Below, piece by piece: positions 13,853-14,257 of a stretch of DNA of 24,609 bases. This stretch comes from an uncultured Clostridia bacterium (GTDB lineage Bacteria; Bacillota; Clostridia; Oscillospirales; Ruminococcaceae). Each line of letters opens with the position of its first letter. Positions within the stretch are counted from its first letter, which is position 1. The notes under the pieces were generated by a model that worked only from the letters and a program-made list of their open reading frames with translations, was not told the origin of the DNA and made no database searches. The position numbers and the translations under genes were made by a program. Location: NCBI GenBank assembly GCA_937871145.1, contig CALMXN010000117.1, positions 1-24,609 on the forward strand, given 5' to 3'.

Positions 13853-14257
13853 ATGAACATTAACGAATTCAGACTGAATAACCTAAAAGTCAATACCCCG
13901 ATACAGCCTGAATCCCAGAAGAAAGTTTCTCAGGACAACACAAAGCCACAGGGCAGTGCTTTCGCTCAGGCATTAAGGGAAAAGTTAAACCAGAACACAG
14001 GTTCTGTTGAATTTTCCAAGCATGCACTTGATAGAATTAATCAGCGCAGTATAGATATGACTGAGGGCAATAAGCTCGAAAGACTGAATAAAGCTGTTGA
14101 GCTCGCACAGGAAAAGGGTGCAAACGAAACTCTCGTTCTGATTGACAAAACTGCTTTTGTTGTCAATGTAAGAAACAACAAGGTAATCACAACAATGTCG
14201 GACTCCGATATGTTGGGCAACGTATTCACAAACATAGATTCAACCGTAATAATGTAA
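13853..14257 (+). CDS. Flagellar operon protein of unknown function (TIGR02530 / Flagellar_put type)
   Basis: FSKHALDRINQRSI, KGANETLVL, VVNVRNNKVITTM, VFTNIDSTVI; characteristic location between flgD and flgE. Confidence 0.88.
   Translation: MNINEFRLNNLKVNTPIQPESQKKVSQDNTKPQGSAFAQALREKLNQNTGSVEFSKHALDRINQRSIDMTEGNKLERLNKAVELAQEKGANETLVLIDKTAFVVNVRNNKVITTMSDSDMLGNVFTNIDSTVIM

Follow-up and report, generated by a model that had tools for sequence, protein, structure and literature searches.

The window, a stretch of 24,609 nucleotides from an uncultured Clostridia bacterium, carries between the hook genes flgD and flgE a gene for a protein of the TIGR02530 family whose N-terminus resembles the signal of early flagellar export substrates. 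Sequence comparisons support an F-x-x-x-Phi motif in this N-terminus as a conserved feature of the family, placed and flanked as an early-substrate gate-recognition motif should be; among the proteins of the same genome it is most similar to the motif of FliE and of the rod proteins. The remainder of the protein is related to DUF4258/BECR RNase-type domains, and a structured RNA directly downstream of the gene, in the leader of flgE, is inherited together with it. We tentatively read the N-terminus as an early-class export or docking module for the flagellar export gate, a possibility that we take seriously but would not yet call probable.

The protein, of which the translation begins MNINEFRLNNLKVNTPIQPESQKKVSQDNTKPQGSAFAQALREKL..., scores above the curated cut-offs of both TIGR02530 (flg_new; 89 bits against 83.2, residues 36-134) and PF12611 (Flagellar_put; 36.2 bits against 21.1, residues 111-133). 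Close relatives of it are named as Oscillospiraceae metagenome bins. The gene lies in a complete fla-type operon, preceded by flgB, flgC, fliE, fliF, fliG, fliH, fliI, fliJ, fliK and flgD and followed by flgE, flbD, motA, motB and fliM, on to fliP, fliQ, fliR, flhB and flhA. FlhB, the presumed receptor, is encoded in the same operon and has the NPTH site (Table 1). The order flgD-TIGR02530-flgE was found in 110 out of 110 related loci, a few of them truncated by contig ends, and the neighbours in this hook module, FliK, FlgD and FlgE, are exported early substrates. Assembled contigs of a related strain from two soil metatranscriptome runs cover fliK, flgD, the TIGR02530 gene, the leader and flgE unbroken; one base is missing in them at 14281, between the two hairpins of the leader RNA described below. 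The listed open reading frame of flgB starts at a TTG six codons ahead of an ATG (M7), which is the likelier start.

Table 1. Features of the window discussed in the text; residue numbers are those of the protein concerned.
Feature	Position	Strand	Basis or remark
flgB	5596-5985		SVQFSTLL
flgC	5999-6427		KSFKSIL
fliE	6454..6756	+	PF02049; G-S-F31-A-D-V-F35-K-D-A-L
fliK	12013-13392		F30MGML34
flgD (hook cap)	13377..13817	+	PF03963; F35LKLM39 in sequence
TIGR02530/PF12611 'flagellar operon protein' gene	13853..14257	+	134 aa; TIGR02530 and PF12611 matches
Residues 1-15, hydrophobic N-terminal segment MNINEFRLNNLKVNT	13853..13897	+	family composition
Residues 16-35, variable polar P/Q/S/K/G spacer, predicted disordered	13898..13957	+	composition; AlphaFold2 coil
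Residues 36-47, predicted amphipathic helix S/A-F37-x-x-Phi40-L41-x-x-x-Phi45	13958..13993	+	conservation and AlphaFold2
F37-A-Q-A-L41	13961-13975		
Residues 50-134, DUF4258/Ntox49-related BECR (RelE/ParE/colicin-like) domain	14000..14254	+	profile and structure comparison
Signature F54-S-x-H57-A-x-x-R61-x-x-x-R65	14012-14047	+	family alignment
Family-specific C-terminal tail NVFTNIDSTVIM	14183-14251	+	PF12611
Conserved structured RNA in flgE leader, 65 nt	14256..14320	+	covariance model R1, E = 5.8e-6
Hairpin 1	14258-14280	+	outer stem, 5' UGGA internal loop, invariant CC/GG pairs
Hairpin 2	arms 14282-14289 and 14302-14309	+	GA-rich loop
flgE (hook)	14403..15944	+	F41SDIY45
flhB, presumed receptor	22891..23967	+	FlhB C-terminal domain; PF01312, 427 bits; NPTH autocleavage site in translation

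A sequence-only reading of the window had pointed to F37-A-Q-A-L41 in this protein and to motifs of the same spacing in FliE, FlgD and FlgE, and all of these were found in the translations as described. FliK, FlgB and FlgC, likewise early substrates, have F-x-x-x-Phi as well (Table 1). Taken from one sequence the motif is not above chance, since F-x-x-x-Phi with the phenylalanine at residues 25-50 occurs in 478 of the 1314 open reading frames of at least 150 aa in the same genome (36%). A profile search for the family in 1.84 billion representatives collected at least 2119 clusters at 50% identity, and 139 full-length representatives with less than 50% mutual identity were aligned. F37 is kept in 138 of the 139, and position 41 is L, F, I, M or Y in every one (L in 127), which is the positional conservation that the earlier reading had asked to be checked. 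Position 40 is mainly I, V, L or A and position 45 mainly L, I, V or M, so that the hydrophobic positions 37, 40, 41 and 45 would fall on a single face of a helix. The motif was also found in loci of Bdellovibrionota, Desulfuromonadota, Actinomycetota, Planctomycetota, Bacilli and Halanaerobiales (titled Bdellovibrionales; Malonomonas, of the Desulfuromonadota; Solirubrobacterales and Baekduia, of the Actinomycetota; Planctomycetota; Aneurinibacillus; Halanaerobiales). As judged from these alignments, its conservation across at least six phyla is far above chance. A chance occurrence without function, which the frequency of the bare motif in this genome would allow for a single protein, is rejected at the level of the family by the near-invariance in 139 divergent representatives and in several phyla, and we regard it as highly improbable.

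In the family the phenylalanine is at residue 36.9 ± 3.8 (median 37, range 28-50), and in the protein of the window at residue 37. According to Bryant et al. (2022, PMC8983047), early substrates of Salmonella carry the gate-recognition motif 30 or more residues from the N-terminus, and the two signals of FlgD have to be at least 19 residues apart, with an optimum of 24-26. The sequence ahead of the motif is likewise divided in two throughout the family. Residues 2-15 contain 25-42% V/I/L/M/F and the approximately 24 residues that follow only about 10% hydrophobic residues, the latter being enriched in P, Q and G, which make up 8.4%, 8.9% and 8.1% of the spacer against 0.8%, 3.7% and 5.0% of the domain. 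Counting back from the phenylalanine, the hydrophobic content rises from 0.18 to 0.40, with the step exactly at -25. Among close relatives the N-terminus is conserved as MLI(N/S)E.L.L. The enrichment at residues 2-15 has to be read with two points in mind, namely that hydrophobic N-termini are common among proteins and that the hydrophobic residues here are large (I, F and L in the protein of the window), whereas the N-terminal hydrophobic signal of Salmonella FlgD consists of small non-polar residues (PMC8983047).

Structure prediction with AlphaFold2, using the 139-sequence alignment, gave a model with a mean pLDDT of 85. Residues 1-35 are coil, with pLDDT values of 56-72 in the spacer at residues 16-35; a helix at residues 36-47 reaches 72-77, and the domain at residues 50-134 is very confident (>93). 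The hydrophobic start and the disordered P/Q/S/K linker of the earlier reading are borne out by this model and by the composition as features of the whole family. A previous model from a shallow alignment of close relatives (pLDDT 46.7) was unusable and was superseded by the 139-sequence run.

The distances on either side of the motif helix bear on a different explanation, namely that this helix is an intramolecular lid or a dimer- or partner-binding element of the BECR domain and that the protein stays in the cytoplasm. The helix would lie like an antitoxin helix over the groove of RelE/ParE toxins and restrain a potentially toxic RNase that lacks a neighbouring immunity gene; its likeness to gate motifs would then be a convergence of amphipathic helices. 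We had expected the distance from the N-terminus to the phenylalanine to be the tighter of the two, as would favour an export signal, and found the opposite in most members: the helix is 16 ± 1 residues from the FSxHA start of the domain in 86% of them, and the median absolute deviation is 3 for the distance from N-terminus to phenylalanine against 1 for that from phenylalanine to domain. This is counted as evidence for the lid. Only the 19 of 138 members (14%) with 10-45 extra residues between helix and domain, in which the distance from the N-terminus to the phenylalanine is 31-44, support the N-terminal distance as the more constrained one, and inserts of this length are difficult to reconcile with a lid. 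They are of low complexity (for example in P0124, P0128, P0132, P0156, P0158, P0171 and P0244). A lid is further in keeping with a moderately confident helix beside a very confident domain, with the absence of an antitoxin or immunity gene adjacent to the TIGR02530 gene in the neighbourhoods of related loci, and with the existence of single-gene toxin-antitoxin fusions in the superfamily (PMC11980606). It leaves unexplained the conserved distance of approximately 37 residues from the N-terminus, the layout of a hydrophobic followed by a polar segment, the step at -25 and the result of the genome-wide comparison given in the next paragraph. When relatives of the protein in the AlphaFold DB are superposed, the domain fits to about 1 Å while the RMSD over the full length is 6-20 Å, so the N-terminal parts do not superpose, which also speaks against a lid held in place. 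On balance we consider a lid unlikely, though well worth keeping in view.

For the comparison with the other proteins of the genome, a 12-position matrix was built from the family motif with the protein of the window left out, and positions 20-60 of the 2726 open reading frames of at least 80 aa in the same genome (2725 without the protein itself) were scanned. FliE (GSFADVFKDAL) ranked first of the 2725 at 19.6 bits, the 99.9th percentile being 13.0. A FlgG/F-like rod protein ranked 6th, FlgB 7th and FlgC 25th, followed by FlgE (89th), FlgD (194th) and FliK (1380th); several of the intervening matches are in non-coding frames. The ranks of the early substrates gave p = 7e-6 in a Mann-Whitney test, a value that overstates independence because FlgB, FlgC, FlgG and FlgE are paralogues. 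Since FlgD and FliK score poorly, the likeness is specific to the FliE/rod version of the motif, and weak hits of PF02049 (FliE) were also seen in five family members. In FliE and the rod proteins the motif segment is also structural, and a likeness to this version counts to that extent against the reading as a gate-docking signal. The earlier claim of an early flagellar export signal accordingly gains in its sequence part, since the motif is conserved, correctly placed and FliE/rod-like; docking on FlhB and export would be further steps.

Residues 50-134 are supported by sequence comparison as homologous to DUF4258/BECR RNase-type domains. When the family was compared by hhalign with DUF4258 proteins aligned from genomes of the same phylum, the probability was 93.5% (E = 2e-7, 65 columns). 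Weak hits of PF14076 (DUF4258) were obtained in 87 of the 139 family members (best E = 2.7e-4), and the protein of the window scores 12.5 bits, under the cut-off of 25, which makes it a member of a related family and not of PF14076 itself. Ten family members also gave weak hits of PF19753 (DUF6240), the best at E = 0.0011. An exhaustive structural comparison with VIA-align returned RelE, ParE, YafQ, HigB and YoeB toxins as the top 17 chains at Z scores of 4.6-6.2; these scores are modest, and the weight rests on the consistency of the 17 matches. Beyond the family itself, the matches in the AlphaFold DB were DUF4258 proteins, an RHS toxin tip and a RelE/ParE toxin. Foldseek found no match in the PDB (best E = 0.24), nor did a sequence search of the PDB chains with the protein.

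Several residues of the domain are strongly conserved: H57 is kept in 138 of the 139 representatives and R61 in all 139, while R65 and K88 are invariant or nearly so. For Ntox49, with which DUF4258 overlaps, the signature has been given as 'H, [KR]' (Zhang et al. 2012, PMC3482391), and H57 and R61 of the family agree with it. An invariant H and R signature argues for a retained active or phosphate-binding site. No member of DUF4258 has been characterised (PMC11980606). Because DUF4258 proteins begin at the FSxHA motif, the first 50 residues of the TIGR02530 protein are an add-on, and the alignments mark the C-terminal tail FTNIDSxVI as a further addition to the DUF4258 core.

The leader RNA of flgE extends from the stop codon of the TIGR02530 gene and lies ahead of the ribosome-binding site of flgE; in related loci it starts at a median of 4 nt past the stop codon. 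The space between this stop codon and the start of flgE is at least 71 nt in all 103 loci (median 91), compared with a median of 24 nt between flgD and the TIGR02530 gene. Eleven of the 12 base pairs show compensatory changes. In the family alignment the outer stem of hairpin 1 is 5 bp long, and each of its pairs shows compensatory changes in 8-23 of 47 sequences; the hairpin also has a YGGA internal loop and the invariant CC/GG pairs. The stem of hairpin 2 covaries as well, and its loop reads GAnnGAnnGA. No Rfam family matched the leader in the window or in 20 related loci, and scans for promoters and terminators stayed at background level.

The distribution of this RNA follows that of the gene. 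Of 301 genomes sampled evenly across the phylum, 199 carry TIGR02530 and 229 carry FlgD (about 87%), so that TIGR02530 is near-core in the flagellated members and yet missing from whole families. Four such families (f11, f14, f43 and f75) are flagellated, with FlgD present, and have neither TIGR02530 nor the RNA motif. The covariance model found the RNA directly 3' of the gene in 29 of 29 independent loci of the phylum sample. Among complete genomes it was found in 19 of 24 with TIGR02530 and in none of 31 that have FlgD but not TIGR02530, and inside one taxonomic family in two of two genomes with the gene and none of three without it; in these counts the genomes are phylogenetically non-independent, and the loci used to train the covariance model have the gene. 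Three genomes have extra copies immediately ahead of flgG, in the gap that separates it from a flgF-like gene, and beside mreB (L151:1501-1566; L154:1936-2001, minus strand; L155:2020-2085), and these copies point to a small regulon of axial-protein genes. One further copy lies approximately 235 nt upstream of a flagellin gene (L152:~1501-1565, minus strand), a poor fit with a simple regulon of early genes only. The joint inheritance of RNA and gene provides comparative, correlative support for the idea of an RNA-acting protein, and makes the leader RNA its candidate regulatory target. The RNA-acting regulator imagined in the earlier reading has in this way acquired a BECR homology and a co-inherited leader RNA, both by comparison, while action on RNA would still have to follow from them.

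The protein might instead be a minor structural or assembly component of the rod and hook, exported through the gate and either built in or serving as a scaffold near FliE, FlgD or FlgE, with a BECR fold that binds protein and has no role on RNA. A FliE-like N-terminus would suit such a component, as would a gene inside the hook module fliK-flgD-TIGR02530-flgE that is present in most of the sampled genomes bearing FlgD. Against this, the protein is without the terminal heptad and ANNLAN domains of axial proteins, and many flagellated lineages do without it, including E. coli, B. subtilis, Caulobacter and Thermotoga. The invariant H and R of the DUF4258/Ntox49 signature also count against it, and the strict association with a structured leader RNA would be left unexplained. 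We consider a structural component improbable.

We return to the export module and what it would mean for a protein with an RNase-type domain. The following model builds on what the comparisons give directly, that is, the motif, its placement, its likeness to FliE and the rod proteins, the domain homology and the RNA-protein co-inheritance. Residues 1 to about 47 would form a FliE-like, rod/hook-class recognition module for the flagellar type III export gate, made of the hydrophobic N-terminal segment, a polar disordered spacer of approximately 24 residues and the amphipathic F-x-x-Phi-L helix. This helix would correspond to the gate-recognition motif with which early substrates dock on FlhB at its cytoplasmic domain, and the module would have been grafted onto a DUF4258/BECR domain acting on RNA. 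The protein would dock at FlhB and be exported in the early (rod/hook) mode of the gate, so that its cytoplasmic level reports the state of the gate. As long as the protein is cytoplasmic, its BECR domain would act on the two-hairpin leader RNA before flgE, or before flgG in other genomes, and so tune the synthesis of abundant axial subunits. In more detail, a gate in rod/hook mode would pump the protein out; before the gate works and again after the switch to late substrates, the protein would accumulate and act on the flgE/flgG leader, and hook and distal-rod subunits would be made only in the early export window. We infer the docking at FlhB, the export, the binding or cleavage of RNA and the direction of the regulation. 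The interpretation as a whole is plausible and partly supported. Its most complete form, in which a BECR RNase or RNA-binding protein is an early-class export substrate that acts on the flgE/flgG leader as an export-coupled RNA checkpoint, we regard as doubtful.

Parts of this proposal have been made before. A BECR RNase of flagellar operons in Firmicutes was already noted by Zhang et al. (2012, PMC3482391), so the fold assignment is not new, and both ideas, export and RNA activity, are posed there in one sentence. That work is earlier than the gate-recognition motif and is without an analysis of the N-terminus; its example from Clostridium tetani probably belongs to the TIGR02530 family. No functional study or secretome report of the TIGR02530/PF12611/DUF3766 family was found in the literature. 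A TIGR02530-type protein, gp136, is reported for megaphage G (10.1101/2024.12.16.628780), and this copy, being outside a flagellar operon, could show the function of the domain on its own. The families with FlgD but without the gene-RNA pair are natural comparison groups for the control of hook synthesis.

TIGR02530, with its at least 2119 clusters, is among the most widespread flagellar genes lacking a known function and is absent from the usual model organisms; the gene is missing from all 14 control genomes of model organisms. If the export reading is correct, the early export mode would have in this protein its first cargo that is neither structural nor a ruler, and the bipartite signal defined in Salmonella would extend to distant phyla. 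Through the combination of an RNA-cutting toxin-type fold with an N-terminus like an export tag, the protein may couple the production of hook protein to the state of the export gate. Together with the leader RNA, this would show how the synthesis of hook and rod proteins is timed in bacteria that have one large flagellar operon, and it would amount to a post-transcriptional mirror image of FlgM in bacteria that keep their hook genes in one long constitutive operon.

Among known systems, the nearest to its N-terminus are the early substrates of Salmonella (FlgD with 36-FLTLL-40, FlgE, FliE and the rod proteins; Evans et al. 2013; Bryant et al. 2022, PMC8983047). They have the same F-x-x-x-Phi at least 30 residues in, and the layout of the TIGR02530 N-terminus, hydrophobic at its extreme end and then polar and disordered for approximately 24 residues before the motif, resembles theirs. 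Like the TIGR02530 protein, they are encoded among rod and hook genes and have no chaperone gene. They differ in being axial subunits, a cap or a ruler, whereas the putative cargo here is a BECR RNase-type domain recognised from its sequence, and the motif was studied in Salmonella while the host is a bacterium of the class Clostridia. FliE (PF02049) has the same S-F-A-x-x-(L/F)-x-x-x-L after a linker rich in P, S and T; the likeness is limited to the N-terminal ~45 residues, after which FliE continues into the helices of the rod base and the TIGR02530 protein into the BECR domain.

In the C-terminal part the counterparts are the DUF4258/Ntox49 BECR toxins, which share the FSxHAxxRxxxRxI start, the conserved H and R/K and a fold of alpha-helix followed by beta-sheet that matches RelE/ParE structures. 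The TIGR02530 protein differs from them by its 50-residue N-terminal extension and its FTNIDSxVI tail, and whereas the toxins belong to toxin-antitoxin and polymorphic toxin systems, it has no adjacent antitoxin or immunity gene and is fixed in flagellar operons.

For the proposed regulation, the earlier reading had drawn a parallel with FlgM, and this holds in part. Both are small proteins, and as with FlgM the cytoplasmic level would be set by export and would couple expression to assembly. FlgM, however, is a late substrate that leaves after hook completion and binds a sigma factor (sigma-28), while the TIGR02530 signal is of the early (rod/hook) type and its bearer would act on RNA; with an early-type signal the logic would be the opposite of that of FlgM. 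FliK, the hook-length ruler, provides a precedent for a regulatory early substrate that is non-structural, and FliW-CsrA-Hag one for an axial gene that is controlled post-transcriptionally, by way of its leader RNA and in connection with export; neither is related in sequence or fold to the TIGR02530 protein. All genomes in which the RNA motif described here was found have TIGR02530, whereas the distribution of CsrA is wider.
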